DNA of 64,000 nucleotides from a virus (IMGVR_UViG_2695420662_000003:32001-96000); one strand, 5' to 3'; shown: positions 953-57,059, counted from the first letter of the stretch. Numbers and translations are program-made. The notes: generated by a model not told the origin, from the letters alone.

Positions 953-1005
953 TATTCAATTCTCCCTCTCATATGTACTTAAGATTTGATTTATCTTATA
1001 CTTTA

Positions 1006-1034
1006 ATAATATATGAATTTATCATACCTGTCAA
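1006..1034 (-). promoter_or_regulatory. sigmaA-type promoter with TATGA-N5-TCATA operator in spacer
   Basis: Minus strand TTGACA-ggtatgataaattcata-TATTAT. Confidence 0.75.
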
Positions 1035-1042
1035 CAACTTTT

Positions 1043-4000
1043 TTAATTTATTTTTAAATAAGTTTCTAACCAAAATTCACAATCAGATAATTTTACCCAT
1101 TTACCATCTATTAATTTCTTCTTTGGTTTAGATACAATTTTTTCTATAATTACAGTATCGAATAATTCTAATTTATTTTCTCTAAATATAGGCTTGCTTA
1201 TCTTTAACGTAGATGTTTTTCCCGTTGCAATACAGTATAGGGTTACTTTAGGACTATATTTCGTATCAACATTAGTAACTACACATATACTCATATCAAC
1301 AGTATCATCCTTTAGTGTGCAATTACCCATATACTCCATATGTGCCTGTATTCTTTCACCTATAGGTATATCTTCGTCTTTTATAGACACCTCTATGTCA
1401 TTCATTATTTTATGATAATCTACCTCTTTTACTTGTTTTTCGCTCGCCTTTGCAGCATGAGGTAATATATAATCTATATATTCATTATCATATTTAAATG
1501 TCTTTTTTGTTGTTATAGTATTAAACGCATCAACTACCTTTATTAATTTGCTAGTTTTCCCAAACTCTTCAAAGAACCCTATTTTTATAAGTATATCTAA
1601 TTGTCTAGAGTTTATATGTCCTTTTATATCAAATAATAATTCCGAGAATGAATTATATTTATTTTCTCTAAGACTATATAAATAGTCTGCCACATCCGCA
1701 TTTAAGAATTTAATAGATTCTATTCCTTTGTATATAGAGTTTGTTTCTTTGTCCATAAAATATTCTGCTTTAGAATATCTGAATTTTGGATCTTTTATAT
1801 GTATTCCTATCTTACTATTATAAGCCTCTACATTTTGTATTTTATCTGGTTTATTTTTTCTAGTCCACACATTCAAAGAGGCTGTAGCAAATTCTAATTT
1901 ATAATAATGACGTAAGTATCCCGCTATATATCCAGTAAATGCATATGGTACGTTATGATTCTTAGAAAATCCATAATTACTTGCCGACTTAACTGTTTCT
2001 ATGAAGTCGTCTATTATATGTGCCGCCTGATCTTCATTTAAATTATATTTCTTAGGTGTATACCCTAAAAATCCCTCTCTAATTTCTTCTATATACTTTT
2101 CAGTACCTTCTTTTTTTCCTATTGCACGTCTTAAAATATCACTTCTCGCTTGAGAATATCCACAAAAGTCAACTAAGAATTGCATTATCTGCTCTTGGAG
2201 TAAACAGTATCCCAGAGTATCGCTTAACATATCATCTAAGTCTTTTATTCCACTCTCTCCACATATACCATTTGCAACTTCATTTCTTATATGTTCTCCA
2301 ACAGGTCTTATTGCTCCATTTATAAGCATAAACAAATCGAATTTTCTTATATTAGGATATCTCTTTTTAATTTTTTCTATTATATGTGGCCTCATGATAT
2401 CACCCAAATATGATTTAGCCATATCTGACTCAAATTGAAATATAGATGTAGTATCCTCTATTATACTATCCCATACGTCATCATCAAATATATCAACTGT
2501 ATCAGGTGTAATTCTTGGTATATTTGCAAGCTTACAAGTTTCATTTATTATAGATATTGTATCTAATCCTAGTATATCTAATTTTACAAACCCCAAAGAT
2601 TCAACCTCTTTCATATCTAATACAGATACAGGTCTACTATTATCCTTAAGCATACATGTTCCAATATTATTCTCCAATGGTATTGGAGATACGATAACCC
2701 CCGCTGGATGAGAACCTATACTTACTACTGTTCCATTTATTATATCTACATATTCAAACAATTCTGGATGCTGCTCTCTTGCTATATGCTCTTTATTTTC
2801 ATCTGTCATTTTTACTATTTCATCTATAACTGAAGAATTGTATCTATCCGGGTATTCTTTTATGAATACTCTACCCACATCCCTAATAGAACCTTTTAAT
2901 GCAATCGTATTAAATGTAATAATATCCGATATGTATAATCCTTCCATTTTGTATATATAATCTCTAACCCACTCTCTATCAATATCTGAATGATCGCCGT
3001 CTATATCGGCCATCGAAACCCTATCCGGATTCATAAAGCGATAGAAATTTAATCCATGTACTATTGCATCAACTTCAACTATGCCTAATATATATGCTAT
3101 GATTGATCCATTAACCGAACCTCTTCCATATCCAAATTCAACTCCACCTTTATCTTTTGCATCTGATGATATTTTTTCTTGTAGCAACATATAATTTATA
3201 GAATCTGTTTTTATATATGTATCCAACTCTTCTCTAATTCTAGGTATATATTCGGTTTCGTAATTATCATACTTATATATACCCCTTCTTATAACGCCCT
3301 CTTGTATTTTTTGTTTAAATATCTCTAATGGATTATCATATAATTGAGGATATTTAACAGAGTTATCTATCTCATACTCTTCAACCATATTTGCTATAAC
3401 ATTTGTATTTTCTATTGCCTCCAACACTACATCCATAGGTAGTCCGTTATTATGTGATTTATAACATTCAACTAATTCATTATAAGTTTTAAATGTCAAA
3501 TCCCACCCATCTTCATTATCAAAATGTATATTTTTGGACTGTTGTAATATATTTCTACCCTTTACATGTTTTTCATCTAGTGCATGCGTATCTGTTCCAG
3601 CACTTAGTCTTATATTGTACTTTTTACTAAGTTCATATAACTCATTATTGAATAAGTTTTGATCTATAACATTATGATGTTGTATCTCTAAAAAACATCT
3701 ATCTTTATTTTCACTCATAAACAATAGAAATTTCTCTTTTAGTTCTTTGCTGCCTCTATTAATAATATTCCCTAAACACGCAGATGTAATTATTATATTA
3801 TTACTTGTATTTAACAAGTCGTCAAATGTTATTCTAGGTGCATAATGAAAATTATTACTATTTCTATTATATGCATTTTTATCTGATAGTAAACTATTTA
3901 ACTCTAAATACCCATCGTAGTTTTTTGCATATAAGCAGCAATGATAGTTATCTCTAATTTTTTCATTAAGTGTTTCAGTTATATAGCATTCTACCCCATG

Positions 4001-4204
4001 TATATACTTTATTCCTAATTTCTTGCATAAGTTTCTTTTTTTAATATGATTAAATATATTACCGTGTTCAGTAAAAGCTATAGCTTTCATACCACATTCT
4101 TTGGCTTTATATATGTACTCTTCGTATTTTGTTACACTATCTATATTTGTAGTTGCATTTGATAGCATGCTATGTAAATGTAATACTGTATAATTCTTTT
4201 CCAT
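1043..4204 (-). CDS. dnaE: DNA polymerase III alpha subunit (phage DnaE)
   Basis: PHP domain (LHLHS, FTEHGN, GTDTH), GRGS, MADIDGD catalytic motif, KLDILGL, YGFSKNH. Confidence 0.97.
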   Translation of the reverse strand: MEKNYTVLHLHSMLSNATTNIDSVTKYEEYIYKAKECGMKAIAFTEHGNIFNHIKKRNLCKKLGIKYIHGVECYITETLNEKIRDNYHCCLYAKNYDGYLELNSLLSDKNAYNRNSNNFHYAPRITFDDLLNTSNNIIITSACLGNIINRGSKELKEKFLLFMSENKDRCFLEIQHHNVIDQNLFNNELYELSKKYNIRLSAGTDTHALDEKHVKGRNILQQSKNIHFDNEDGWDLTFKTYNELVECYKSHNNGLPMDVVLEAIENTNVIANMVEEYEIDNSVKYPQLYDNPLEIFKQKIQEGVIRRGIYKYDNYETEYIPRIREELDTYIKTDSINYMLLQEKISSDAKDKGGVEFGYGRGSVNGSIIAYILGIVEVDAIVHGLNFYRFMNPDRVSMADIDGDHSDIDREWVRDYIYKMEGLYISDIITFNTIALKGSIRDVGRVFIKEYPDRYNSSVIDEIVKMTDENKEHIAREQHPELFEYVDIINGTVVSIGSHPAGVIVSPIPLENNIGTCMLKDNSRPVSVLDMKEVESLGFVKLDILGLDTISIINETCKLANIPRITPDTVDIFDDDVWDSIIEDTTSIFQFESDMAKSYLGDIMRPHIIEKIKKRYPNIRKFDLFMLINGAIRPVGEHIRNEVANGICGESGIKDLDDMLSDTLGYCLLQEQIMQFLVDFCGYSQARSDILRRAIGKKEGTEKYIEEIREGFLGYTPKKYNLNEDQAAHIIDDFIETVKSASNYGFSKNHNVPYAFTGYIAGYLRHYYKLEFATASLNVWTRKNKPDKIQNVEAYNSKIGIHIKDPKFRYSKAEYFMDKETNSIYKGIESIKFLNADVADYLYSLRENKYNSFSELLFDIKGHINSRQLDILIKIGFFEEFGKTSKLIKVVDAFNTITTKKTFKYDNEYIDYILPHAAKASEKQVKEVDYHKIMNDIEVSIKDEDIPIGERIQAHMEYMGNCTLKDDTVDMSICVVTNVDTKYSPKVTLYCIATGKTSTLKISKPIFRENKLELFDTVIIEKIVSKPKKKLIDGKWVKLSDCEFWLETYLKIN

Positions 4205-4391
4205 ATTTAATCTCCCTATAATCTTAATTTACTTATCATTCATTCTATTATACTTACATAAAGTAAATATATGTTCTCCGTTATCTAGACATTTATATTT
4301 TGTTTCACTCACATACGATCTATAAGTTTCTCTTATTGATGCACCTATTATTTGAAGTCTTTTAGATGCACAATAAGGGCATTTTATTCTA

Positions 4392-4544
4392 TCATTCTCC
4401 ATGTTCTAATATCTCCTTCTCATTACAATCTTTACAATCTATAAAACTAACTAAGAAATTCCCCTCTTCATCAAATCTATGTACTATCTCAGCATTTATA
4501 CTCTCGCATCTCAAGCATTTTATCTCAAATTTCATAATTATCCT
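4392..4544 (-). CDS. Small zinc-ribbon protein
   Basis: CxxC...CxxC in ORF 4392..4601; the likely start is MKFEIKC just after an AGGAG RBS, so the start coordinate is approximate. Confidence 0.5.
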   Translation of the reverse strand, partial: RIIMKFEIKCLRCESINAEIVHRFDEEGNFLVSFIDCKDCNEKEILEHGE

Positions 4545-4555
4545 CTCCTTAATAA

Positions 4556-5563
4556 TTATTTCTTCTTCCAATGTTTGCAATGTTTCTTTGAGAATGCACA
4601 AAGATTCTTACAGTAAAACTCATTTATATTACATTCCCACTCATTTATATTCTTCACATCTGTATTTTCTATATTTTCAATTGTATTTAATATGTACTCC
4701 ATGCATTCATCTTTTACTTCTTGTGTAACATCATATTTACACACATATGTACTTATCGCCACCTGATTTCTTATTTTTTCAGGCAATATATCTATATTAT
4801 TTACTGCCCCACATTTTGCTAACATAGCATCTATCATTATAGATTCTATTCCTTCTTTTTTTAATAATGCCTTTAATTGAACTTTAGATTTTGAAACCCA
4901 TTCCCTTGCAGATACTATCTTAGGTTTATTACTACCTATTTGGATTTGGAAATATTTCGTCATCTCCCAAGCATTTTCAACTACCTCCAAGTTATATAAT
5001 TGCTCTAAGGCCATTTGATAAACACATAATTGTCTTCCGGCATCTATTATTTTTTTCTTGTCAAATTTTGAAGATGTCTTAAAATCAATAACCTTAACTT
5101 TATTATCATCTATTTTTTCTATAAGATCTATATACCCCGTCATATATTTTTTATCATCTAATTTAAATATAAACCCCATTTCTGATATACACTCATTTTC
5201 TCTTTTCTTATAGTATTTATAGAATTCGTCTATATCTTTTTTATAATTATTTTCTACGTTCTCACTCATGAATTTCACGCCAAATAATTTACTTTTCATC
5301 CATTCCTCATCAAAACATTTTCTTTCTAGAACATCCGTTTTACCTTCATAATATCTTTCTAGATCTGAATGTACCCCACTCCCTAACAATGAATAAATAT
5401 TATTATCTTGTTCTTTCTTTTTTATATATGTATAGTAATATGCACGTTTACAGTTATTAAAGTTATTTAATCTTGATATAGAGTAGAATTTTACATCTTC
5501 TCCATATATTGATTTTATTTTATTTATTTCATCCGACATTGTTTCCCTTGTAATTATTTTCAC
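4556..5563 (-). CDS. PD-(D/E)XK exonuclease, AddB/Cas4-like with Fe-S cysteines
   Basis: YSISRL..C..YYY, GYIDL, IDFKTS, QLxxY, C-terminal CxxxC...C. Confidence 0.88.
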   Translation of the reverse strand: MKIITRETMSDEINKIKSIYGEDVKFYSISRLNNFNNCKRAYYYTYIKKKEQDNNIYSLLGSGVHSDLERYYEGKTDVLERKCFDEEWMKSKLFGVKFMSENVENNYKKDIDEFYKYYKKRENECISEMGFIFKLDDKKYMTGYIDLIEKIDDNKVKVIDFKTSSKFDKKKIIDAGRQLCVYQMALEQLYNLEVVENAWEMTKYFQIQIGSNKPKIVSAREWVSKSKVQLKALLKKEGIESIMIDAMLAKCGAVNNIDILPEKIRNQVAISTYVCKYDVTQEVKDECMEYILNTIENIENTDVKNINEWECNINEFYCKNLCAFSKKHCKHWKKK

Positions 5564-6576
5564 TAAACCACCTCAATTAAGTATTCACTTAGTATTTTTT
5601 GTATCTCATCTATATTCATATCTAATAAAGATATTTTTTTCTCTTTTACATATTCATTATTCATATCAACTATCCAAACTTTGTTTTTTAAGAATGGATT
5701 ATCTATTAATACTTTCTTTGCCTCTTTTTTACAATGTTCTAAAGTTATTCCTTCATCTAATGCTAATATTACATTTGCAAATGTACTTTTTATTAACTTC
5801 GCCTGTCTTGGTTTTATACTGTTCCCGCCCAATGCAACCACATTATTTAAATTTATATCTCTACCTTTTAATACTGATTTTTCCGATTCACATATTATTA
5901 TTGTGTTAGTATTTAATATATTTTTATAATTTTGATAAAATCCATATAAGAATTTACCTTTTTCAAAGTTTAATACTGGTAAATATTTATAGTTAGTCTC
6001 TATTCCTGTTAAATCTCTTGCCATACGCCCCATTACACCAGCGAGTTTACCATCGTCTGACAACCAAGGAATCGTTATTCTATCTGTCCATATATCGTAA
6101 CCTATCAAGAAATCTTCTTGTGTCTTTCCAGATATTCCATCCTCCATAAATAATTTACATGCTGCAACTCCAAATTCATCCAAATTTGCTTTGGGATATG
6201 TTCTCAATGGTTTATCTTCTAATTCTCTAATTTTTGATATATTCTTATAGAATCCTCCGAATGGAGGTTTGACTTCAACCCTTTTGTAACTTTTATCTAT
6301 CCCTAACTCGTCTGCTAAATATCTAATTGCTTTACCTATGGATATATTTTTGATTTCAGATATAAGTGTTATAATATCCCCTTGCGTATCGTGTGAAAAG
6401 GAATTATAACCTAATGTGTCTATTCTAATTACATTCCCTGTTCCCGATCCTTCATCATCTCTCCCAAAACGTATCTGATTGCTATTTGGTTTTATATATG
6501 TACATCCTATTTTTCCAAGGATTTCAATTATCCTATCTTTATCATTTTTTAGACTATCTTTTATTTTTGTTATCAT
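5563..6576 (-). CDS. dnaG: DNA primase (TOPRIM)
   Basis: RITIPW, GR, KY, LYG, ICESEKS, VALGG, LALDEG; adjacent to helicase. Confidence 0.88.
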   Translation of the reverse strand: MITKIKDSLKNDKDRIIEILGKIGCTYIKPNSNQIRFGRDDEGSGTGNVIRIDTLGYNSFSHDTQGDIITLISEIKNISIGKAIRYLADELGIDKSYKRVEVKPPFGGFYKNISKIRELEDKPLRTYPKANLDEFGVAACKLFMEDGISGKTQEDFLIGYDIWTDRITIPWLSDDGKLAGVMGRMARDLTGIETNYKYLPVLNFEKGKFLYGFYQNYKNILNTNTIIICESEKSVLKGRDINLNNVVALGGNSIKPRQAKLIKSTFANVILALDEGITLEHCKKEAKKVLIDNPFLKNKVWIVDMNNEYVKEKKISLLDMNIDEIQKILSEYLIEVV

Positions 6577-6591
6577 GAGGATAAATCCTCC

Positions 6592-7701
6592 TTAATTCGT
6601 TATTCCATATTTCTCAAATAAATGCTTTTGTGGAGCAAATTCTTTGAAATACTTATTTTCGGCTTTCAACCTGGCAACTATAGCATCATTCTTATCTTTA
6701 TATGTGCCAAGTCTATATATTTTATTATTACATCGTATGTACGAACTCCATTTTTCACAATCTTTTCTATAACAGACGCCTGTAATTCCGCTAGTGTTAC
6801 TTTTTCTTAATCCAACGTTTTTGACATTATCACTCTGTTTTACTACTCTTAAATTCTCTTTTCTATTATCATACTTAACTCTATTTATATGGTCTATTAC
6901 GTAACCATCTTTTGTCTGCATTATAAGATTATGCATCTTTACCTTTTCGCCAAAACTTACAGATTCAACATATTCCTCTTTGTAGTGCCATGTATAATCT
7001 TTTATTTTATCGTAATCTTCTTTATCAAAGTAGAATGGTTGATTTTTATTAGTGTATCCGATTCCATATTCATTTGTTAGATCATATGTATTATTGTTAT
7101 TTCTTCTATCTATTTCCTTAAGTATGCATCCGCAAGATATAACTGATTTAGTTTTTAATCGATGCGAACTTACAACGCTATTCTCACCACATTCACATTT
7201 ACAATTCCAGTAATAATGTCCTTGATTATCTTTATGACTTAATCCAACTACTGTTAATCTATTTACTACTTTGCCTATAAAATCTTCAAATTCATTTTGA
7301 AGGCAACCACATGATTTCGAAGTTCCTTTATTTAAAGAGTTTAAATAATAACTCTTTATTTCACTACATTCACACCTACAAAGTAATTTTCTATGTTTTG
7401 TCGAACTATCATCCGCCTCTTTTATCACTGTAAGTCTTCCAAATTTTAAACCTATGTAATCCTCTATATTGAAAGGTTTAGATTTAAACCCTGTACAATC
7501 TGTACATAAAACCGAATTTCTTCTTTTGATATTATCCCAACTTCTACTCTCTATTATATTTCCACACCTACATATCCATTTATGAGGATGTCTTACGTTC
7601 AAATACATATCATCATACAGTTTTAAATTATATTCTGATAATAGCTTATTAACTTCTGTATTTGTCATGTTAGGTTTAATTTTTACATCTTTCAATTTCA
7701 A
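6592..7701 (-). CDS. Free-standing HNH homing endonuclease with AP2 domain
   Basis: Repeated FGRLTV..CxCxC..SCGC modules, DHINRVKYDNRKENLR, NTSGITGV...AP2; inserted between helicase and primase. Confidence 0.9.
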   Translation of the reverse strand: MKLKDVKIKPNMTNTEVNKLLSEYNLKLYDDMYLNVRHPHKWICRCGNIIESRSWDNIKRRNSVLCTDCTGFKSKPFNIEDYIGLKFGRLTVIKEADDSSTKHRKLLCRCECSEIKSYYLNSLNKGTSKSCGCLQNEFEDFIGKVVNRLTVVGLSHKDNQGHYYWNCKCECGENSVVSSHRLKTKSVISCGCILKEIDRRNNNNTYDLTNEYGIGYTNKNQPFYFDKEDYDKIKDYTWHYKEEYVESVSFGEKVKMHNLIMQTKDGYVIDHINRVKYDNRKENLRVVKQSDNVKNVGLRKSNTSGITGVCYRKDCEKWSSYIRCNNKIYRLGTYKDKNDAIVARLKAENKYFKEFAPQKHLFEKYGITN

Positions 7702-7703
7702 GA

Positions 7704-9137
7704 TTATTTTCCCCCAAATCCATCATACTGTATTGAAGTGAAACCTACTTCGTAATATTGATTAAAACTCATATTCTTCTCATAAACAAGTTGAACATTA
7801 CTCTCCCCAAATCTATTTTTTGCCACAAAAAGAACGATGTAATCTTTATCTTTGTCTAACTTTATTATTTCATTCTTGTTAGTAAGTTTTCCTGTATTTT
7901 CATCTCTTTTCTTTTTCCATACTTTTAAATTTTCCTTTTCCTGATCTTTAATATCTCTAAACATAAGTATCTGAGCTGCTACCTCTGCAATGGCCCTTGA
8001 TTTTCCTATACTATTTATATCTAAATATTTTTTACCATAACTATTCGTTGCTAACTGTGCCGTACATAACAATGCTACGTCACACTGCTTTGCCAACAAG
8101 AATAATTCTTTACTTGTCTCCGAGAACTCAGCCCAAGATTTATCAGATGTCTCATCTGTAGGTTTTAATGTATCAACTAACATTGTATTAAATCCTATTT
8201 TGCTATATTTTTTTATTATACGTCTTATATTATCTATATTATAATCTTTCATTTCAACAAATGTTAGGTTGCCAGAATACTGTTCTAACCACTTAGAACT
8301 CTCTCTTAATGCCTCTCTATCTTTTTCACTAAAGTTACCATATAGAAACTTCTGTCTATTCATTCCATAATATTTAATTCTATTAAACATTACTGTGGCT
8401 AACAACATTTGTCTCCACTCCATCTCGTCTTGTTCATTGGCCATTATAACCATTTTCTCCCCACTTTCAATTATAGGTAATACTGCCAAAGGTAATGCGA
8501 ATGAAGTTTTCCCGCCTCCAGAAAAAGCTAATAATAAATTCAATGTGCCTCTATGTAATCCGGCCAGAGTATAATTTATTATTGGAAATCCCAATTTATA
8601 ACCTATTGCATTACCAAGATTCCACTCTTCTATAGCTTTATCATATCCTGTGGTTAAATCTATCTCTTTTATTCTTCCACTTACACATTTCAGCATTGTA
8701 TTTGTTGCCTTATAAATTATGTAATCTTCAACTTGTATTGATGTCATTTGTGTAAGTTTATCAAATAGTTTGTCTGATTTAAGTATACCTTCCGTTTCAT
8801 AATATTTTATTAAATTCCATTTTCTCCAATCGTCAACTATCATATCTGCATTTCTTATGTCTACGATGCTCATTAATTCCTTTATTGTAGAATATCCACC
8901 CATTCTCTCATATGTATCATTTAAATTTAAATCATTTACCTCATTAATAAAACTTACCTCATCTACTACTTCTATTCCTTTTTCTAAGAGTCTATTAACT
9001 ATACCTACATAAAATAAAGCCTCAGGACTTAATAATTCTTTGTTTATATCATAATCTTGATATAATTCTGGTTTTTTTAATATTAATCCAGAAAGCAAAC
9101 CTTCTGATCTCATAAGTCTCTCTTGTAATCTATCCAT
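7704..9137 (-). CDS. dnaB: Replicative DnaB-like helicase
   Basis: Walker A AFSGGGKTS, ANEQ, VDTLK, AQL, KNRFG. Confidence 0.92.
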   Translation of the reverse strand: MDRLQERLMRSEGLLSGLILKKPELYQDYDINKELLSPEALFYVGIVNRLLEKGIEVVDEVSFINEVNDLNLNDTYERMGGYSTIKELMSIVDIRNADMIVDDWRKWNLIKYYETEGILKSDKLFDKLTQMTSIQVEDYIIYKATNTMLKCVSGRIKEIDLTTGYDKAIEEWNLGNAIGYKLGFPIINYTLAGLHRGTLNLLLAFSGGGKTSFALPLAVLPIIESGEKMVIMANEQDEMEWRQMLLATVMFNRIKYYGMNRQKFLYGNFSEKDREALRESSKWLEQYSGNLTFVEMKDYNIDNIRRIIKKYSKIGFNTMLVDTLKPTDETSDKSWAEFSETSKELFLLAKQCDVALLCTAQLATNSYGKKYLDINSIGKSRAIAEVAAQILMFRDIKDQEKENLKVWKKKRDENTGKLTNKNEIIKLDKDKDYIVLFVAKNRFGESNVQLVYEKNMSFNQYYEVGFTSIQYDGFGGK

Positions 9138-9146
9138 ATATACCCC

Positions 9147-9668
9147 CTAGTCTAAAAATTGCGATATATCGTTACTTTTTCTTTTTGTCGATATAGGCAT
9201 ATCATTCATTATATCTATATTAATCTCGTTATTTTCAACCTTATTAAACAATCTACTTATTTCTTCTAATTCTTTCATATGTACTTTTTTAATATCTTCT
9301 ATATTATTTAAAATTATTGCTAAAACATATCTAAATTTATTATATTCATTACTAAATTCTTTGTTATTCACAGCCCATCTAATATCCTCTTCTTTGGTCT
9401 TAAATGTTTTTGTTATTACTACATACTCATAATATTCTCTTACGGTTTTTAATTGTTTTATCATTCCCGGTGTTACCAAAGGTATATTTAAAATATCTTT
9501 TATAACTTCATAACACTTATCTCTTTGAATTATTTCGTCTTGTTGTTTATCATATTCTTCTTCGCTACAATAATATAAATTTACCCTTTTAGATTTCTGC
9601 TCTTTTACTATTTTATAAGCACTATCTCTTTCAATCTTACTCCCACATATTTTACATTTTACTTTCAT
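9147..9668 (-). CDS. Zn-binding replication-operon protein (possible helicase loader)
   Basis: N-terminal CxxC...YYCS, position directly upstream of helicase as in SPbeta-like phages. Confidence 0.6.
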   Translation of the reverse strand: MKVKCKICGSKIERDSAYKIVKEQKSKRVNLYYCSEEEYDKQQDEIIQRDKCYEVIKDILNIPLVTPGMIKQLKTVREYYEYVVITKTFKTKEEDIRWAVNNKEFSNEYNKFRYVLAIILNNIEDIKKVHMKELEEISRLFNKVENNEINIDIMNDMPISTKRKSNDISQFLD

Positions 9669-9724
9669 TTTTAATCTCCCTTAAAAGTTAAGGTGGAATA
9701 TTTCTACTCCACCCTCATATGTAA

Positions 9725-44680: not shown

Positions 44681-44682
44681 TT

Positions 44683-48380: not shown

Positions 48381-48872
48381 ATGAATAGTAAAGCATATAT
48401 AAAAGATGTATATAAATTAATTCAATCAGATTCAGAAGAAATATGTAAAGGTAGAAAATTTAAAATTCATAAACTTACTCTAAAAGATAAGCTTAAATCT
48501 AAAAGAGAAGTTGAAATATTGTTATCTGATGGAATTAATTATTACAATTCAGTAGAAAATGTAAATCTTAAGAATTGTAAAATGGTAATAAAGTTAGATG
48601 GTGAAGTTAAGTATGAAAGTGATAAAGGTGTTTTTAAGAATACTAAAATATCATATAAGTCAGCAGGTAAATTCAGTTTTAAAGAATTTATAAAACTTAA
48701 TACACCAGATCCAATAGAGGTAAACCTAAAAAGTATAGATTTTAGTAGAGATTATCATAGAAATCAATATCATACTTTTAGAAAACTTATTGCATGTCAA
48801 ATAAAATTAGATAATGCATTAAGAAATTTTATAGAATCAAATACTTTTAGAATTAATAAAGAGATAAGTTAG
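48381..48872 (+). CDS. Hypothetical protein
   Basis: 163-aa ORF with AAGGAG RBS. Confidence 0.7.
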   Translation: MNSKAYIKDVYKLIQSDSEEICKGRKFKIHKLTLKDKLKSKREVEILLSDGINYYNSVENVNLKNCKMVIKLDGEVKYESDKGVFKNTKISYKSAGKFSFKEFIKLNTPDPIEVNLKSIDFSRDYHRNQYHTFRKLIACQIKLDNALRNFIESNTFRINKEIS

Positions 48873-49290
48873 ATATTCGTTTAATATAGTTTGTAATTAT
48901 GCAATCTTTTATAGGTAATTCATCTTATAATCCCCATTGGTGTGCGATAAAAGATCGACTTTACATTATAAAGATTGTATAGTGACATTTTATATTAAAT
49001 GAATATACGGACTTATTCAAATATTAATCCTAAAAGTAAAGATTTAATAGAAATTATAATACCCAGGATTAACTTAAGTTAAATTGATTTATTTAACTTA
49101 ATGATATTATTACCCAATACTCTAATTATATACTGTAAAGATTAACCATTTATCAATGGAGCGTTATGAGTTAATATAGGGACTTTATAAAGGCGAGAAG
49201 TTGATAAATAATCCTATATCTAAATACACTTAATAAAAAATAGTAAGTATATTTACTTGCAGTAAGCGTAAAATATACTATTTATGCTTA
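48873..49290. ncRNA. Candidate structured non-coding RNA
   Basis: Nested long stems ATATTCGTTTAATAT/ATATTAAATGAATAT and TATGCAATCTTT/AAAGATTGTATA plus further hairpins; no ORF. Confidence 0.4.
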
Positions 49291-49367
49291 GAATTGCAAA
49301 AGATACATGTTATAACATAAATACACAATCAATATATCAAAATAAATAACAAAGGAGAATATTCACT

Positions 49368-49505
49368 ATGAACATATTAGATTTACTAAAGCTATTAACT
49401 CAACCAATAGAAAATAGTAAGGCGTTTTTTGTTATATCGCCCATGTTAGTTTTTATATCAGTATCATTGCTTTATAAGGGCTACAGACTTGTCAAAACTA
49501 AATAA
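49368..49505 (+). CDS. 45-aa membrane peptide (type I toxin-like)
   Basis: AAAGGAG RBS; MNILDLLKLLTQPIENSKAFFVISPMLVFISVSLLYKGYRLVKTK, one TM plus basic tail. Confidence 0.6.
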   Translation: MNILDLLKLLTQPIENSKAFFVISPMLVFISVSLLYKGYRLVKTK

Positions 49506-49591
49506 TTATATTAAAACCGTATAATATCAAGATTTGTTAAGTGTGTAGCGGGGCGCATTTAAAAATCAAGATAATATACGGTTACTTAGCG

Positions 49592-50089
49592 TTAAATTAA
49601 TTTTATAAAATCATTAACTATATTCCAAAGGCCATACATGATCATAATTAAAAGTAAAAATAGAACAAACATAAACATATTATCTATGGCACTCCATTTG
49701 TATGCAATAACCTCTCTATCAAGATTTGGGGCTGTTGCAGGATCTATAACGGGTCTTATATTTTTCCACACCTTCCAATCTTCAAGATGCTGATTGGGTA
49801 TAAAGTAAAGTCTACTACCTTTGTGTACTTGATTGAATTCTGGTTGGAAATATTGAATTAATTGTTTCTCTATATAATTAATATCTACGTCTTCATCTAT
49901 CTCTTTAAAATCTATTCTAGCAACATTATCAAGACATATCTGTGGTAAATGTCCATTTTTACCAAAATGACTACTCATACGGTTGCTAATTGAATTTGTT
50001 TGTCCAATATATAAAATTTTCCCAACATCATCTATAAATCTATATACGTAATTCATATAAATATCATCTCCAAATAAAATAAAGTGCAA
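49592..50089 (-). CDS. GIY-YIG nuclease with C-terminal TM helix
   Basis: YVYRF......ILYIGQT..I..R...H, E..LI....PEFN; hydrophobic C-terminus. Confidence 0.8.
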   Translation of the reverse strand: MHFILFGDDIYMNYVYRFIDDVGKILYIGQTNSISNRMSSHFGKNGHLPQICLDNVARIDFKEIDEDVDINYIEKQLIQYFQPEFNQVHKGSRLYFIPNQHLEDWKVWKNIRPVIDPATAPNLDREVIAYKWSAIDNMFMFVLFLLLIMIMYGLWNIVNDFIKLI

Positions 50090-50123
50090 CCATAGTATTT
50101 ACAGTTACACTTTGAGTTATTCA

Positions 50124-51716
50124 TTATTTATTAAACTCGCAATATTTATTTAAATAATCTTCCATATCTTTATCGGAAAGATAAAATCCTTTAAATTCAA
50201 CTTTACCATTTTCACACTCATCATTAAATAATATACCATGTCCTTTACCATTTAATTTAGATAAGCAAGTGTCATCGCATATTATTTTAGAATTAGATCC
50301 ATTTACAGCCTTAAATCCTATTACATTAGTTAAACTTGCTTTAAAATCAGGAGACATTAACTTAGCAGATGGTCTTTGTATATTACATAAAACAGTTATT
50401 CCAGCACTTCTACACAAGAACCCTAACTCTGCTAAATCTTTTTGAAGATTTCCATTACTAATTAGTCTAACTGCATCATCTATTGCTAAAACTATTCTAT
50501 TCAACTGTTTATCTTTAGATACTCTTTTATTATAATCTGAAAGATTTTTTGCATTAACCTTTTCAAACAAATCACTTCTTCTGTCACATTCTTGTATTAA
50601 CTCTTTTATGAAATCCCATGCCTCATCTTTATCTTTTGTATACTTAACAACACTTTTACATTTCTTATACATTCCAAATTCAGTTCTTTTTAAATCTATT
50701 AGGTAAAATTTAATATCCTTACGTCTACAAAGAAGTTGAGTAAGGATTAGATTTGTACAAACCGATTTCCCAGACCCAGTACATCCTGCTATTAATAGAT
50801 TCGGATTTGTATCTAGATTCAAATAAACTGTTTCTCCCCTTTTATCTAAACCTATTTCTATAATCAATTCATCTAAGAACTTATTAATATCTAATGAATA
50901 TGGTGCATTTTCTGGAAGTTCCTTTGTAAGAACATCTATATATAAATATCCATCTTTAATTTTAAAAGATATATCATCGTGGCCTATAAATTCCTTTATG
51001 GCAACATCTATATTTTTTAGGTGATATGTTGATAATCCTATAGTTGATTTGAATTTATAGATATACCCATATTTTGTTTCCTTTATATCTATTAATTCTG
51101 GATACTCTCCACCTCTACTTTTAATATCTGAATACTCCCAAAAGTCCATCCAATCCTTCTGTTGTTGTGATAAAGTAGATATGTTCAAATATAATTTATT
51201 ATCTTTTATATTTATTTTCATATTATCAACTTCTAACATTTCTTTTATACGATCAGAAATCTTCTCTATATCCGATTTATATATTCCAAATGGTAATTCA
51301 AACATTATAGTTCTTTTCAGACCATCTAGTATGTCATATGCAAACTTAGGACATGTGTCGTTGCATGTAATTTTATTATTTGACCAAAATAATTCCCATA
51401 TTTCACAATTATATTTATAATTCTCTTTTTGAATTCTTTTATCTTTAGTGAGAACTCTATATATACCGTATATACCACCTGCTGCACCTACTCCGCATAA
51501 AGCTACTGGAGCACCTATAGATAGTATAGGTAATGCTATTGAAGATACAACACTAGGATATGCTGCACCTAATGCTAAACCTGAGCCTAAAATCCCTAAT
51601 CCTATATCTATATTATTTATTTCACCCATATAACTACCCCCATTTTCATTTATAATATAGTGTATGAAAAATATTAAGAAAAGTTCATATATTTTTATAT
51701 TTTTTATTGACACCAC
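50124..51716 (-). CDS. FtsK/SpoIIIE-family ATPase
   Basis: N-terminal TMs (likely start MGEIN), LIAGCTGSGKS, IDLK, IDD, RSAGI, QRP, GKGHG. Confidence 0.9.
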   Translation of the reverse strand: MVSIKNIKIYELFLIFFIHYIINENGGSYMGEINNIDIGLGILGSGLALGAAYPSVVSSIALPILSIGAPVALCGVGAAGGIYGIYRVLTKDKRIQKENYKYNCEIWELFWSNNKITCNDTCPKFAYDILDGLKRTIMFELPFGIYKSDIEKISDRIKEMLEVDNMKINIKDNKLYLNISTLSQQQKDWMDFWEYSDIKSRGGEYPELIDIKETKYGYIYKFKSTIGLSTYHLKNIDVAIKEFIGHDDISFKIKDGYLYIDVLTKELPENAPYSLDINKFLDELIIEIGLDKRGETVYLNLDTNPNLLIAGCTGSGKSVCTNLILTQLLCRRKDIKFYLIDLKRTEFGMYKKCKSVVKYTKDKDEAWDFIKELIQECDRRSDLFEKVNAKNLSDYNKRVSKDKQLNRIVLAIDDAVRLISNGNLQKDLAELGFLCRSAGITVLCNIQRPSAKLMSPDFKASLTNVIGFKAVNGSNSKIICDDTCLSKLNGKGHGILFNDECENGKVEFKGFYLSDKDMEDYLNKYCEFNK

Positions 51717-51780
51717 TATACTTAATATATATAATTAAAGTGTAAGGTAAATTCTTACAAAGTACATATGAAGAGGAGAA

Positions 51781-52542
51781 TTGAATATGAAAATAAAGAG
51801 TAGAGATGTTAAGTTATTTCTAACAGGGGGAATAATATCTTGGGCAATCACAAGTGGTCTTGTGGTGTTTCCATTAGATCAAGAAAACAGAGATTTGAAA
51901 TTGAAAAATGAACAACGTACTCAAATTAATAATGATTTAATGAGCAAAAACAAGGAACTTATTGGTAAAAATAGTAAAAAATCTAAGAAATTAATAGAAA
52001 AAGATAAAAAAATTGAGCAATTAGAAGAAAAAATAAAGGATTTTGAGTTTAAATCGGTAAATTTTAATCCAAATGATATAACTCAACCCACCAATATCAA
52101 AGCGAAACAATTAGAAATATTATTTAAGAGCAACAGTACATATGAGAATTTGATAGGATTAGAAAAGGCTTTTGTGGATGCAGAAGAAAAGTATGGAGTA
52201 AATGCGATATTTTTATTAAGTTTGGTATCGCAAGAGTCTAATTATGCGAAAAGCAGTAGGGCAATTAACAACAATAACCTAACGGGTTACGCTGTATATT
52301 CTAATGACAGTGAGGGTAGATCATTTAATAGTAAGTATGATTCTATACTATCTACCGCAAGGTTACTAAGGGAAGATTATTTAAATGAGAATGGAAAATA
52401 TTTTAAAGGGTTAGATATTTATAGTGTGAATAGCAGTTACTGTGTTACTGAGGATAAATACTCATGGTCTAGGAATATAATAAGTATAGCAAGTACATAT
52501 ATTGAAAAACTTAATGCGATTAATAGCCAATTTAACGCATAA
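51781..52542 (+). CDS. Membrane-anchored glucosaminidase (GH73-like peptidoglycan hydrolase)
   Basis: TM, coiled coil, AEEKYGVNAIFL.....QES, NNLTG, YC.....W. Confidence 0.85.
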   Translation: MNMKIKSRDVKLFLTGGIISWAITSGLVVFPLDQENRDLKLKNEQRTQINNDLMSKNKELIGKNSKKSKKLIEKDKKIEQLEEKIKDFEFKSVNFNPNDITQPTNIKAKQLEILFKSNSTYENLIGLEKAFVDAEEKYGVNAIFLLSLVSQESNYAKSSRAINNNNLTGYAVYSNDSEGRSFNSKYDSILSTARLLREDYLNENGKYFKGLDIYSVNSSYCVTEDKYSWSRNIISIASTYIEKLNAINSQFNA

Positions 52543-52635
52543 TGTTTAATTATAGGATAAATAAGTTTAGTACATAATTAAAACCTCTTAGAATGGCTAT
52601 AAATAGATAATTTAATACATTGGAAGGATGATTAA

Positions 52636-53574
52636 ATGGATAAACTCACGCAACATAAAGTAGGAGTTGTATATGATGAATACGGAGAAATACTAAAAAC
52701 TATAATAATTAAAGATGATGAAGATATTGAAATTATTAATAAAAAACGGAGATTACAAGAGTCTCAACTAAACTATATTAATAATAAAAACGAACTACAT
52801 AAACAAAGTTGTTTATTAGGAGGTTATGTACATATGGCATACGTAAAAAATGAATTACTATTCAATAATATAGGTATAGATAGGGCTAATATAAGCAGAT
52901 TAATATACCTATCTACTTATATAGATTATAATAATAGACAAGAAAATCTACTTATTAAATATACCCAGAACAACAAGGTGAAGCCATTATCAAAATATGA
53001 GATTAAGAAACTATTGAAGTTGAATGATACCGCATTTAAATCATTTATGGCGGATGTGATAAAACACAATCTTATAATTGAAGAAGACGGGTTTTTCTAT
53101 ATAAGTAATGATTATTTTTCAAAAGGGTTGATAGATAAATCTAAACTTAACAATAAAGAGTACACCAGGATTTTCATAGATACTACAAGAATGTTATTTG
53201 AGAATTGCACAAGTAGGCAACATAAACAACTTAGTTATATATATCAACTAATTCCATTTATGAATTTTGAGTTAAATGTAATATGTAGCAACCCACATGA
53301 AACTGATTTTTATGAATTAGATAAATTAAGTCTTATTCAGATATGTAAATTATTAGGAACTAGCACGGTCAAATCATCTATGAATAAACTTGAAAATAAT
53401 TTATTGAAATTTCATATAAAAATTGATGGTAAAAAATATTATTTATTCAAAAGAGTTATCGTAAAGGGTGGAAATGGAAAATTTGATTATTTTATTATTA
53501 ATCCTTATGTTATATGGGGTGGAAAAGATACAGATAAGGTAAAAGATACACTACAGACTTTATTATTTAAATAG
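52636..53574 (+). CDS. Rep-like winged-helix protein
   Basis: RLIYLSTY, LIPF....N..C.NP, FIINP..I.GG; followed by direct repeats. Confidence 0.6.
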   Translation: MDKLTQHKVGVVYDEYGEILKTIIIKDDEDIEIINKKRRLQESQLNYINNKNELHKQSCLLGGYVHMAYVKNELLFNNIGIDRANISRLIYLSTYIDYNNRQENLLIKYTQNNKVKPLSKYEIKKLLKLNDTAFKSFMADVIKHNLIIEEDGFFYISNDYFSKGLIDKSKLNNKEYTRIFIDTTRMLFENCTSRQHKQLSYIYQLIPFMNFELNVICSNPHETDFYELDKLSLIQICKLLGTSTVKSSMNKLENNLLKFHIKIDGKKYYLFKRVIVKGGNGKFDYFIINPYVIWGGKDTDKVKDTLQTLLFK

Positions 53575-53662
53575 TAAGTTCTATTTCTGCGACCAAAAAC
53601 ACCGTAGTAAGTTCTATTTCTGCGACCACTGGTTTTTACGGATAAACGTTGAAATATCAACG
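53572..53662 (+). repeat. 24-bp direct repeat x2 plus palindrome (origin-like)
   Basis: tagtaagttctatttctgcgacca at 53572 and 53605; CGTTGA-aata-TCAACG at 53647. Confidence 0.8.
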
Positions 53663-53921
53663 ATTTTTATTAAAAAAAAGATGTTCAACTCTTATATATT
53701 ATATAAACTTAAATTGTCACACTAAGTAAATAAAATACATATAAAGAAAAAATAATTCTCTGGGCAAAACACGTTCTATCGTTTTGAACAGATGAGACAC
53801 AACTTGTTTGTGGCGAACATATTAAGTTATACGTTACATATACACTTCACGAAAACAAGTTTCGCTCGTGTTCTGATCAAATTAAAAATCAAATTTGCTC
53901 AGAGAAAATTTAAAATATCTA

Positions 53922-54000
53922 TTGACAAGTATGATAAGTTCATATACAATTAAATTAAGATAACAAGTTAGTTATCAAGTACATATGAAGGAGAATTGAA
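53922..54000 (+). promoter_or_regulatory. Promoter-operator-leader cassette
   Basis: TTGACA-agtatgataagttcata-TACAAT, hairpin GATAAC-N6-GTTATC, AGTACATATG, AAGGAG; near-identical leader in inverted orientation at about 27100 and 34872. Confidence 0.8.
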
Positions 54001-54287
54001 TATGGTTTTTATAATATTAATATTGATGATTGCATATTCTATAAATAGAGGTGTAAATTCAAAATCTGAATCGGGATTAAATATGTGGTCAAAAGTATTT
54101 TACATAATTATCACTATGTATATAATATATTCGCTATATACAATTATTAATATATTGTTATTATAGGCTGTAAGAGCCACGGTGAGAAGATTTAATACGT
54201 AGTAGGATTAATTATATTAATAATGATTTAAAATTGAATATAATGGGTTTAAATGGTTTAGAATAATTATATTAGGAGGATAATAGA

Positions 54288-54518
54288 GTGAATTTTAATA
54301 AGGTGAGATTAGAAATATTAGAAAGGTTAAACGAAAGATACGAGGACGGAGTATATCATTTAAACATAGAAGATATAGAAGATTGTGTTGGAGATATAAT
54401 GAGTACATATGGGATTGAATTAGAAGATATTGAAAATATGATAGTTTATGAAGAAAATTATCATGCTAAACTAGATGCATTAAATCATGATGGGACGCAT
54501 CTAGAGGAAGAGAATTAA
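54288..54518 (+). CDS. Acidic hypothetical protein
   Basis: 76-aa ORF, AGGAGG RBS. Confidence 0.6.
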   Translation: MNFNKVRLEILERLNERYEDGVYHLNIEDIEDCVGDIMSTYGIELEDIENMIVYEENYHAKLDALNHDGTHLEEEN

Positions 54519-54540
54519 TAAAAAGAATGGGAGAGTCAGA

Positions 54541-54756
54541 ATGAGTGGATTGAATGTATTAAATAATGAAGTAGCGATGATAAGCTTAGAGGTTGTAGAT
54601 CTTATAAATAAGTTTAGGGTAGAAGAAGGAAATAGAAAAGAATTACTACATAAAAACTTTATGGCTAGCATAAAAAGTGAGATTGAGGCACTTAAAAAAG
54701 CTGGTATTAGAGCCGGGCTAAATTTTCAGCCGGGAAAATGGTTTAAAAGGAGATAA
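54541..54756 (+). pseudogene. Truncated Rha-like antirepressor N-terminus
   Basis: MISLEVVDLIN..R...ELLHKNF...I..E...L......NFQ then early stop immediately before an HNH gene. Confidence 0.55.
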
Positions 54757-54757
54757 G

Positions 54758-55468
54758 TTGATTATGAACGAATTAAAAATATGTAGCAAGTGTGGGAAAA
54801 CTAAAGATATAGAATGCTTCGAACTACATTCTGTTAATAAAGAAACTGGTAAAATTAATTTAAGAGGACAATGCAAAGAATGTAGAAAAAATATAAGAGA
54901 TAATAAGAAGGATTTAAGAATTGATTATGACAAGGCTAAATATAAAGAGAATAGGGATAAAATATTAGAAAGAAAGAAAGAGTATTACAGGGAAAACAGA
55001 GAAAAGATATTAGAATATAAATCTAGATATTATATTGAAAATATAGATAAAATTAAAGAATATTCAAAGTTATATCGATCTAATTGTGGAGAAGTAAGAA
55101 GGGTGGCGGAATATAAAAGAAGAAGTTTGATTAAAGGGTATAAATACACAAATGAAGAATGGGAAAAATGTCTTGAATTTTTTAATAATAGATGTGCATA
55201 TACTGGGGTTGAATTAACTAAGGAGAATACACATAGAGATCATATTATCCCTCTGTCAAAGGGTGGATTGAACGTGATAAGAAATATAGTGCCAGCTTTG
55301 AGTAGTGCAAATATATCTAAAAGAGATAAAGATATGGAAACATGGTTTAGAAGTAAGGACTTCTTCGACGAAGGTAGGTTAAATAGAATAATTGAATGGA
55401 TGAAATTTAATGATGTTCACGCTTTAATAGATAGTATAGAAACTTTAGAGGATATATTTGATATATAG
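54758..55468 (+). CDS. HNH endonuclease
   Basis: CSKCG..K, CKEC, F.NRCAYTG....HRDHIIPLSKGG.N...NIVP.....N.SK. Confidence 0.9.
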   Translation: MIMNELKICSKCGKTKDIECFELHSVNKETGKINLRGQCKECRKNIRDNKKDLRIDYDKAKYKENRDKILERKKEYYRENREKILEYKSRYYIENIDKIKEYSKLYRSNCGEVRRVAEYKRRSLIKGYKYTNEEWEKCLEFFNNRCAYTGVELTKENTHRDHIIPLSKGGLNVIRNIVPALSSANISKRDKDMETWFRSKDFFDEGRLNRIIEWMKFNDVHALIDSIETLEDIFDI

Positions 55469-56927
55469 GGGGAAATTAAATATGACGTTTACAAATAATA
55501 ATTTTAGAGGAAGAATAGATGGTAAAGATTTATATTATTATACAAATAATTTAGATTACAAAATACAGGATACAGAAAATAGAATAAAATATATAGAAGA
55601 TAGATTAGGATCGAAATTAATAGGATATAAAAAATTAGATAGGCATAATTGTACATATGATATGAAGGTTCAAGCAAATGATAAATATTGGGAAGAAATC
55701 TTTATACAAACATCGGATATTGCTTTAGATAAAGATGGTTTATATCAGGTCGAAGATGAAGGGAAAATTAAATTAGTAAGTTATAGCGAGTACATATCAT
55801 GGTGTGAATTAAACAATAAAGATGCATTAGAGTACGCTGATATAAATAATCCATTTAAAGCCATCCCTTACGAAAATATTCATGAAGAGGATGAAATATA
55901 CGATGATGTAAAGATAGAACGTGGAGAGTGGAAATATACAGGTCAGAACACATCTAAAATTAAATTGGTTCTTAATAAGTCGGATGATTTATATTCAACA
56001 TCAAATATAGCAAAAGGATTAGAAAAATTAGGTAGTTATATATTGAATGCGCCAGTACATATTAAAGACGGTAAAGAGATTCCAAAAAAAGAAAATTTAA
56101 AATATAAGATATATAATAGTAGAGAATTGTTTAATAGGGCATGCCAAGAATATAATACAATAAACAGATTCTTGAGAGCAAATGGAATTACAGATAAATC
56201 AGAAGATTTAGAAGGTGAAGCAATACCGATGTTTCAACCTCATAAGCAAAACTTTAATAAGGTTAAAACTGTAAGATATATGGGATATGGAGATATTAAA
56301 AAATATCCTATGCTTAAATCATATGTTGAGTTACACGATAAACTAAAATATGAATTAAAAAAACCAAATAGTAAATTAGATAAGAAGAAACTTCCGTATA
56401 TAATGAAAGGATTAAAGGATGATTTAGATTTAGTTAAACAATCATCACTAAAACCTATAATATTTAAAGCACCATTAACTCCAACTCCAAAATCTATATA
56501 TGAAGACATAGTAATCCCTTATAAAAAGGAATTATATGGAATGCTGCAATCAAAAGTTGAAGATTTAAGAGATTTAGATATGATGTGTTGCCATATAGAT
56601 TTAATGAATATAATGAAAAAATGCAAATTCACAGAAAGACAAAAAGAAATACTTGATTTATGGTCAAGAGATTATTCTACAACAGAAATAGGTGAGATAT
56701 TAGATGTAAGTAGACAAGAAATAGAAAGGTCTATGAGTGTAATTATAAATATGATAATAAGAAAATATAAAGATCAATATGAGGATTGGATAGGATTTAA
56801 TTATAAAAAATCAGAATGGAAACAATGCAGTAAATGCAATGAGGTTAAATTAATAAAGAGATTTAATAAAAATGGAAAATATATAATGTCTCTATGCAAA
56901 GATTGTGATTTGAATAGAAAGAAATAA
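55458..56927 (+). CDS. Putative late transcription regulator with sigma-region-4/LuxR-like HTH
   Basis: FTERQKEILDL....YS..EIGEILDVSRQ; C-terminal CSKC...CKDC; precedes packaging genes. Confidence 0.65.
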   Translation: MIYRGKLNMTFTNNNFRGRIDGKDLYYYTNNLDYKIQDTENRIKYIEDRLGSKLIGYKKLDRHNCTYDMKVQANDKYWEEIFIQTSDIALDKDGLYQVEDEGKIKLVSYSEYISWCELNNKDALEYADINNPFKAIPYENIHEEDEIYDDVKIERGEWKYTGQNTSKIKLVLNKSDDLYSTSNIAKGLEKLGSYILNAPVHIKDGKEIPKKENLKYKIYNSRELFNRACQEYNTINRFLRANGITDKSEDLEGEAIPMFQPHKQNFNKVKTVRYMGYGDIKKYPMLKSYVELHDKLKYELKKPNSKLDKKKLPYIMKGLKDDLDLVKQSSLKPIIFKAPLTPTPKSIYEDIVIPYKKELYGMLQSKVEDLRDLDMMCCHIDLMNIMKKCKFTERQKEILDLWSRDYSTTEIGEILDVSRQEIERSMSVIINMIIRKYKDQYEDWIGFNYKKSEWKQCSKCNEVKLIKRFNKNGKYIMSLCKDCDLNRKK

Positions 56928-57059
56928 TATTGTGGAAAAATAGTTGCGATATATCGCAGTTATAGGGTATATATATTGTAAGGGGTATTAAATAATGCCC
57001 ATATATCGAAGTTTTAGTACATATGATTAGAAACTCTACTCAAACGAGAGGGTATTTAA

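Follow-up and report, generated by a model that had tools for sequence, protein, structure and literature searches.

Bacteriophage T4 encodes RegB, a sequence-specific RNase that cuts the phage's own messages at ribosome-binding regions, and the RNase III sites of phage T7 are intercistronic cis-elements at which a single RNase creates defined ends and leaves a hairpin on the upstream product. MazF of Escherichia coli is said, after the work of Vesper et al. from 2011, to cut just 5' of AUG codons and so to yield leaderless messages. The roles that have been proposed for the E. coli enzyme, ribosomal reorganization among them, are for the most part described as strongly contested (bioRxiv 10.64898/2026.08.06.743204). 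For the arbitrium phages phi3T and SPbeta of Bacillus subtilis, transcripts enriched in MazF sites have been reported (bioRxiv 10.1101/2023.04.27.537455), and host MazF is reported to bias the phage to lysogeny, possibly via the cutting of lytic transcripts, by a mechanism that the source itself calls uncharacterised (PMC10769878). The strict hexamer of the B. subtilis enzyme EndoA, U/ACAUA, comes from end mapping (PMC11780869); in reporters, the enzymes of B. subtilis and Listeria monocytogenes are stated to cut only U/ACAUA, and that of Staphylococcus aureus to cut it best (bioRxiv 10.64898/2026.08.06.743204). Here we describe the word GTACATAT and the mazF gene that accompanies it in the viral stretch IMGVR_UViG_2695420662_000003:32001-96000 (the window; 64,000 nucleotides, bases 32001-96000 of a 130,836-bp record with direct terminal repeats). 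Judged from the sequence, we hold it on balance to be probable that the word is a MazF-cleavable element in lytic messages by which the phage controls its own genes through a toxin.

The phage belongs to a known kind, the MazF-site-rich temperate phages: like phi3T and SPbeta it is a large temperate phage of Bacillota with an excess of MazF sites on its message strands. It is distinct in its phage-borne orphan mazF, in the extension and strength of its word and in the placement of the copies. In phi3T (84.5 kb; our own count) sense UACAUA amounts to 80 copies versus 27.1 expected and antisense UACAUA to 28 versus 25.2, and no flank preference is seen. This is an about threefold excess of the bare hexamer, mostly inside genes, whereas the phage studied here has an 8-9-nt word at about 25-fold and one third of its copies in translation initiation regions. 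In phi3T and SPbeta, moreover, MazF is owned by the host together with MazE and the phage encodes inhibitors, while the present phage has its own mazF without a detected antitoxin. RegB has no relation to MazF and acts on GGAG in the Shine-Dalgarno sequence (SD) of early messages only; here the protein is a MazF and the site flanks or follows the SD, in early and late genes as well as in coding regions. The E. coli model relies on a 3-nt ACA site in host genes without a built-in motif, whereas the present word puts AUG exactly 4 nt past the predicted cut at 17 genes. The T7 sites, finally, are double-stranded and served by host RNase III, in contrast to a single-stranded word that has hairpins only at a promoter-proximal subset.

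In the window, GTACATAT occurs 55 times versus 3.95 +/- 1.99 expected, a number reached by 0 of 100 shuffles, and TACAT has 348 matches versus 261 expected. The whole 130.8-kb record, whose G+C content is about 27%, contains 112 GTACATAT and 70 GTACATATG, and 0 copies of the reversed control word. The distribution over the strands is as follows:

Window 213..62922, both strands: 55 copies of GTACATAT, 39 of them on the minus strand up to 43359 and, from 44073 on, 15 on the plus strand and 1 on the minus strand (62144).

The copies thus follow the gene direction of both divergent lytic arms, which join near window 44 kb at the cumulative GC skew minimum. Among the copies in the record, 110 of 112 are co-oriented with the called genes (184 genes, 86% coding), and the replication arm holds 74 copies and the right arm 36. 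An earlier note on this DNA had claimed dozens of oriented copies, a claim that these numbers bear out and surpass.

Single-base variants reveal a strict TACATAT core within a compact word, (A/T)GTACATAT(G). The core is preceded by G in 70 cases versus A in 12, C in 4 and T in 16, and it is followed preferentially by G (70), by A in 23 and T in 18 cases and almost never by C (1). Because the 40 nt on both sides carry almost no information and an upstream partner is absent, we regard the element as a short word and not as a repeat element. On the transcribed strand it reads G-UACAUA-UG and contains the exact MazF hexamer. The tallies for the lytic arms (120,596 nt) are:

GTACATAT, sense strand: 107 observed versus 4.2 expected.
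[A/C/T]TACATAT, sense strand: 81 observed versus 22.9 expected.
TACATA followed by A, C or G (NTACATA[A/C/G]), sense strand: about 1x.
All word classes, antisense strand: about 1x.

The selected core on the message strands is UACAUAU, and a preceding G lifts its enrichment from about 3.5-fold to 25-fold.

An orientation that flips at the GC-skew minimum near 44 kb would also be expected of a polar DNA signal (Chi-like, KOPS-like or a priming site) that is set by the replication arm and follows the transcripts only because genes and replication share one direction. The phage encodes an FtsK-like protein, its own primase and its own helicase, the spacing of the copies is Poisson-like (coefficient of variation 0.98; density about 1 per 1.14 kb), and the exact copy at 47514 follows the arm although it lies in an opposite-strand gene. 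Placement, however, peaks at start codons, and the opposite-strand regions (6.3 kb) contain 1 exact 8-mer copy versus about 5 expected at genome density. The earlier note had set arm against transcript orientation, and the few informative cases point both ways, with two opposite-strand genes that carry the 7-mer in their own orientation near their starts and the single 8-mer that follows the arm. Pfam reported no FtsK gamma domain, and 0 of 205 genomes (201 of the family of a Peptostreptococcaceae metagenome-assembled genome and 4 others, the phage's host not being identified) showed an excess of the 9-mer, the highest count being 29 per genome, where the control word reached 9. That the word acts as a polar signal on DNA is in our view highly improbable. 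Regular spacing as for Okazaki priming was rejected on account of the coefficient of variation.

While intergenic and gene-edge DNA makes up about 13.5% of the sequence, 60 of the 112 copies are located there, and 50 lie in coding sequences (CDS) in sense and 2 in antisense. Sixteen copies share their ATG with a start codon, 15 begin 20-28 nt 5' of a start, and copy density within about 30 nt of start codons is several-fold above that elsewhere. With respect to the 7-mer core, the start codon is the core's own ATG at 17 of the 184 called genes, and a further 21 have the core at most 35 nt 5' of the start, mostly touching the SD. The former arrangement is exemplified by thyX:

19633..19641, minus strand: word between SD and start of thyX (identified by Pfam Thy1), its ATG being the start codon.
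17850-17858, 18134-18142, 22244-22252, 33794-33802 and 40299-40307, minus strand: word between SD and start, arranged as in thyX.
52828-52836, plus strand: word between SD and start, arranged as in thyX.

The SD-to-start placement that had been noticed before is hence confirmed at 17851, 18135, 19634 (thyX), 22245, 33795, 40300 and 52828, and the site at 10837 is a variant, TTACATATG. The copies inside CDS use all three frames (27/14/9) and number 47 versus 12.6 +/- 2.8 after synonymous-codon shuffling, which argues that selection acts on the nucleotide word and not on peptides. With 50 of 112 copies inside CDS, the word is not confined to leaders. Nor is a restriction to early mRNAs supported, since these CDS positions and both arms, including the late structural arm, carry the word. 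Coupling through a mini-ORF (open reading frame) that starts at the word's AUG was considered as well and rejected: a stop near the true start was found at 6 of 12 sites in frame 0 and equally at 6 of 12 in the control frame.

At least 13 sites share a promoter-proximal layout composed of a TTGACA-like -35 element, a 17-nt spacer, a TATAAT-like -10 element, a hairpin, the word, the SD and the start codon. The word begins 26-29 nt past the end of the -10 element, and the hairpin begins about at the expected transcription start. The modules in the window include:

971..1037, minus strand: promoter, hairpin, word and SD upstream of gene 698-952.
12311..12373, minus strand: promoter (TTGAAA-17-TATTAT), hairpin and word.
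18311..18374, minus strand: promoter (TTGACA-17-TACAAT), hairpin, word and SD upstream of gene 18144-18293.
27114..27178, minus strand: promoter (TTGACA-17-TATAAT), hairpin GATAAC/GTTATC, word and SD upstream of gene 26861-27097.
34873..34937, minus strand: promoter, hairpin GATAAC/GTTATC, word and SD upstream of gene 33881-34852.
44015..44080, plus strand: module with which the right arm begins, upstream of gene 44099-44680, its word followed by T, not G.
51707..51769, plus strand: promoter (TTGACA-17-TATAAT), hairpin, word and SD upstream of the endolysin-like gene 51787-52542.
53922..53986, plus strand: promoter (spacer AGTATGATAAGTTCATA), hairpin, word and SD at the head of the operon with the phage sigma factor gene.

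The stems of these hairpins differ in sequence, which points to a relevance as structure and not as a shared operator. The leader architecture described in the earlier note was recovered at eight of its ten coordinates (971, 12311, 18311, 27114, 34873, 44073, 51762 and 53979), all with a sigmaA-like -35 element, a 17-18 nt spacer, a -10 element, hairpin, word and SD. It is incomplete at 39472, where a promoter is present and the hairpin absent (0.0 kcal), and at 18629, where a hairpin is present and no promoter was seen. The hairpin as a general partner of the word was rejected (mean fold energy of the 45 nt upstream -3.99 at 60 intergenic sites versus -3.68 at 300 random intergenic positions), so that the claim of a hairpin 5' of the word is valid for the promoter-proximal subset only.

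The 17-nt spacers of the sigmaA-like promoters often hold an element of their own, GTATGA-N4-5-TCATA or a direct GTATGA repeat, with 9 distinct inverted-repeat and 2 direct-repeat places in the record; examples are found at 1008-1037, 18346-18374, 34909-34937, 40411-40439 (the mazF promoter) and 53922-53950. Its appearance is operator-like, it is possibly the site of a prophage master repressor, and the arrangement recalls that of SPBRE and MrpR in SPbeta. The word itself is far too frequent for an SPBRE/MrpR-like operator, a role that the spacer element fits better.

Even the nearest named relatives of the phage, large Clostridioides difficile phages from the phiCD211/phiCDIF1296T group, are distant ones: PolIIIalpha is 32-51% identical, and tblastn in phiCD211 yields matches for only 40 of the 184 called proteins. 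The sigma factor that the two phages have in common deserves attention in the present context:

55482..56927, plus strand: phage sigma factor, matching phrog_5767 and sharing 38% identity with its homologue in phiCD211.

This protein would be the candidate reader of the word if host RNA polymerase with phage sigma used the latter as promoter or start-site element, comparable to a compact middle or late promoter such as T4's TATAAATA. The word is indeed compact, has no upstream partner, lies 5' of many genes and also within upstream genes, and is absent from the maintenance genes. T4 late promoters likewise lie within upstream genes. But about 15 sites have an SD that begins 2-6 nt past the word, and 17 genes, each with a good SD, use the ATG of the word as start codon. 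Were the word a -10-like element, transcription starting 6-7 nt downstream of it would begin in or past the SD. The word is also devoid of the TAnnnT form of a -10 element, is spread over the early as well as the late arm and not limited to one temporal class, and finds no counterpart in phiCD211, in whose 45-nt upstream regions SD-like words alone are enriched in spite of the homologous sigma factor. No phage RNA polymerase was found among 40 distinct ORFs scanned. We consider a promoter function quite improbable. A motif common to both phages through the homologous sigma factor was searched and not found, and a sigma-factor scan of viral contigs found no relative.

The phage studied here is a large phage of gut clostridia with a MazF gene of its own, which lies on the strand opposite to its arm:

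40490..40843, plus strand: mazF, 117 amino acids (Pfam PemK_toxin, PF02452, 7.6e-34).
40411..40489, plus strand: mazF promoter and leader, with the -35 element TTGTTA at 40411-40416, the -10 element TACAAT at 40434-40439 and an AGGAG SD.

Residues 7-114 align with profile positions 2-109 of the 109 positions of PF02452, which corresponds to a full-length member of the PemK/MazF fold family. The best PDB matches (7BXY, 4HKE, 2MF2, 4MZM, 4MDX and 1NE8, at 3e-34 to 2e-33) are MazF/EndoA proteins of Bacillus and S. aureus, whereas other MazF clades match at 1e-11 or weaker. Among named sources, Peptostreptococcaceae such as Paraclostridium, Romboutsia and Intestinibacter have the nearest homologues (62-65% identity); two further MazF homologues, 86% and 65% identical, are encoded on contigs of 7.6 kb and 127 kb, respectively. 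The segments GVRPV, AAIT, KLPTH and EQIRTIDK are kept in the alignments, with GVRPV and AAIT identical; these two segments presumably contain the catalytic Arg and Thr, as we take from the structure of the B. subtilis enzyme. By its sequence, the protein belongs to the UACAU(A)-cutting clade of Bacillota. No same-strand ORF of at least 20 amino acids with a family match and no adjacent antitoxin ORF is present beside mazF, and the whole record has no match to the MazE-type families PF04014 or PF01402, to which the search for antitoxin folds was confined. The literature contains, among the matches listed, no report of a phage-encoded, orphan or solitary MazF system of such a kind.

The mazF promoter has a 17-nt spacer, AGTATGATAAATTCATA, and TACATAT is located at 40467-40473, 27 nt past the -10 element and touching the SD from its 5' side, where TACAT had been noticed before. 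The leader thus shows the layout of the lytic modules minus the hairpin, with A instead of the first G of the word. About 700 bp separate mazF from an IS605-type OrfB/TnpB gene (41533-42783, minus strand; Pfam OrfB_IS605 with a Cas12f1-like TNB domain), and a small helix-turn-helix gene (41118-41309) is found between the two. It may be that mazF arrived with mobile DNA.

The bare hexamer was also counted on its own. Sense UACAUA is lacking (0 copies) in ten opposite-strand maintenance genes (6,294 nt), namely three partition-region genes and one neighbour, the Rep3 pair, mazF with its complete CDS, the FtsK-like pair and gene 47318-48043, whereas 247 sense and 82 antisense copies were counted in the lytic arms. 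Among the ten are:

32228..33325, plus strand: Rep3-type replication initiator, a maintenance gene on the opposite strand with 0 sense UACAUA.
50124..51629, minus strand: FtsK/SpoIIIE-like gene on the opposite strand with 0 sense UACAUA.

The two opposite-strand genes with a 7-mer, mazF and gene 47318-48043, both have TACATAT in their own orientation just 5' of the start.

A census of the hexamer was also made in relatives, based on 41 loci found by PolIIIalpha, several of which are duplicates of one phage. The counts at six of the loci are:

L034: sense UACAUA 0 versus 14.1 expected, which ranks lowest among 60 hexamers of equal composition; antisense 17 versus 16.1.
L054: sense UACAUA 0 versus 8.5 expected.
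L038: sense UACAUA 0 versus 6.1 expected.
L032: sense UACAUA 0 versus 5.6 expected.
L063: sense UACAUA 3 versus 12.0 expected.
L039: sense UACAUA 18 versus 7.2 expected, enriched instead.

In addition, L033 is depleted together with L032, and L025 and L027 are enriched in sense UACAUA. Where the sense hexamer is purged, near-identical words are less affected or unaffected, as illustrated by the sense controls in L034 (TACATG 8 versus 6.5, TACA 104 versus 104.2). Since the message strands of relatives are either purged of UACAUA or enriched in it, the census suggests that large phages of low-GC Clostridia are, as a group, under general selection by cleavage of the MazF type.

The extended word might nevertheless be read by another phage factor, either a translational repressor like RegA of T4 or another RNase, in which case the presence of the hexamer would be coincidental. 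The selected word, 8-9 nt in size, is longer than any MazF site, it lies within the ribosome footprint at 38 of the 184 called gene starts, and it is private to this phage lineage among everything searched, as would be expected of a co-evolving pair. The phage moreover encodes, outside the window at genome 7319-8791 (minus strand), a metallo-beta-lactamase/beta-CASP protein of 490 amino acids with an RMMBL RNA-specificity domain (RNase J/CPSF-like); it matches phrog_36352, to which no function is assigned there, and has no phiCD211 match. We know of no beta-CASP enzyme that is sequence-specific, which speaks against this candidate, and a candidate binding protein was not identified. A given hexamer would be found in a 9-mer by chance in about 4 of 4096 cases, relatives select on exactly UACAUA in sense, and it is the hexamer itself that the maintenance genes lack. 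Recognition by another factor is possible, in our estimation, but doubtful.

Several observations weigh against cleavage of the word by MazF and have to be set beside the evidence in its favor. The word exceeds known MazF sites in length, with U7 required and the preceding G strongly preferred, and neither property is accounted for by the published MazF specificities consulted. About 59 other sense UACAUA in the phage are neither avoided nor enriched. The exact copy at 47514 is antisense inside gene 47318-48043, in agreement with the arm. The predicted accessibility of the sites shows a small rise over same-composition words (0.50 versus 0.45, p = 0.002) and is not above that of random positions (0.49, p = 0.14). 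With its lytic-type promoter, mazF is a less suitable candidate for acting in established lysogeny, and the gene models on which the placement is based are heuristic calls of our own. The co-occurrence of mazF and the motif that the earlier note had proposed to look for in related phages is not seen, as 20 viral loci with a MazF homologue (29-61% identity) have no excess of sense UACAUA (pooled observed-to-expected ratio 1.21, 71/58.6). The antisense ratio of the same loci is 1.77 (113/63.7), under a first-order expectation that is rough for them, other same-composition permutations reaching pooled ratios of up to 1.9.

The extended word, furthermore, was not found in excess in any relative, be it phiCD211, the available part of pCD1602_4, the PolIIIalpha loci or viral contigs. 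GTACATAT was counted 9 times in the 131.7 kb of phiCD211 and 4 times in 43 kb of pCD1602_4; of two scans of viral contigs for the exact pattern, one yielded 8 chance matches without enrichment and the other 0 matches; and the PolIIIalpha relatives, which comprise 13 viral loci, 28 from metagenomes and 1 from a genome, all at 57% identity or less, show no excess. A literature search with the 9-mer found no phage motif by title or abstract among the matches listed. The MazF switch that the earlier note envisaged is partly supported. The exact hexamer, the clade of the enzyme, the lack of a detectable MazE, the message-strand bias, the hexamer-free maintenance genes and the pattern in relatives are indirect evidence for it; the focus on early mRNAs is not borne out, hairpins precede the promoter-proximal subset only, and the word is longer than the site.

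Cleavage by MazF would operate as follows. The word would be a cis-acting RNA element on lytic messages whose core, U/ACAUAU, is the cut site of an endoribonuclease of the MazF type. The simplest candidate is the antitoxin-less MazF of the phage itself, although a host MazF of the same clade may cut too; RNA carrying GUACAUAUG is the proposed substrate of the phage enzyme. If this MazF cuts between U and A of the word, one cut would matter most between SD and AUG, or directly 5' of the SD behind a 5'-terminal hairpin, where it would disable or re-format the message, and further cuts would fall inside coding regions. MazF activity would thus selectively inactivate or re-format lytic messages, and the plasmid-maintenance messages (par, rep, ftsK-like and the coding region of mazF) would be spared as site-free. 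The site in its own leader would limit the level of MazF by feedback, and the lytic-type promoter would favor production early after infection or induction. The net effect on the lytic programme may be a brake in favor of the plasmid-prophage state, comparable to the effect of host MazF on phi3T, or else a timed switch after the manner of T4 RegB. A phage of the phiCD211 group has been described as having a genome that is large, circular and extrachromosomal (PMC5786514).

A more special outcome of the cut is conceivable. In B. subtilis, EndoA products from hexamers followed by U or C are reported to be trimmed to 5'-monophosphate ends 2 and 4 nt downstream (PMC11780869). Four nucleotides past the predicted cut in G-U/ACAUAUG the sequence is A-U-G, and therefore a message trimmed by 4 nt through a host activity could begin at the AUG and be leaderless at 17 genes. 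The word would then convert SD-led into leaderless translation, which would account for the U at position 7 and for the preferred G at position 9. Under this arrangement, 17 genes including thyX and several structural genes would be kept translatable while host and other phage messages are cut. We regard the conversion to leaderless translation as unlikely.

Replication and nucleotide genes comprise PolIIIalpha, a DnaB-like helicase, a primase, topoisomerase II subunits, NrdD and ThyX, and apart from the genes for the Rep3 initiator, the FtsK-like protein, TnpB and the sigma factor, there are those for a tyrosine recombinase and several HNH endonucleases as well as a structural module. At least three HNH/homing-type endonuclease genes are located in the window, at 54764-55468 directly 5' of the sigma factor gene, at 6592-7701 and at 59335-60693. 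The last one, an ORF of 452 amino acids with matches to homing-endonuclease PHROGs, lies within the about 1.8 kb between two parts of a large terminase gene that looks split, with ORF 58998-59303 corresponding to the N-terminal part of the phiCD211 terminase and ORF 61100-62485 to the remainder; an intron or some other invasive insert could be the cause of the interruption. The stretches 45904-47317 and 56928-58147 (1.2-1.4 kb each) are without a called ORF of at least 60 amino acids on the arm strand and carry one copy of the word each (46146 and 57017). Rfam found nothing in either of them and no family in the window as a whole, and a tRNA search found none. The replication origin may lie in the stretch 45904-47317, which adjoins both the GC-skew minimum and the strand switch. 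A megablast search of window 30000-50000 against phage records gave no match, and contigs from four DNA runs compared with window 15001-35000 represent fragmentary relatives of 80-99% likeness with 678 differences.

Discussions of MazF toxins usually present them as factors of stress or defence in the host. If the word is indeed a MazF site, the use of such a toxin in the decision between lysis and lysogeny would be readable from the sequence of a single phage, with its own nuclease, more than 100 marked sites in lytic messages and maintenance messages that are site-free. The system bears on the type II toxin as a gene-specific post-transcriptional regulator, and also on the contested idea that MazF makes translatable leaderless messages. 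Should the conversion to leaderless translation prove true, the phage would own a switch from SD-dependent to leaderless translation.

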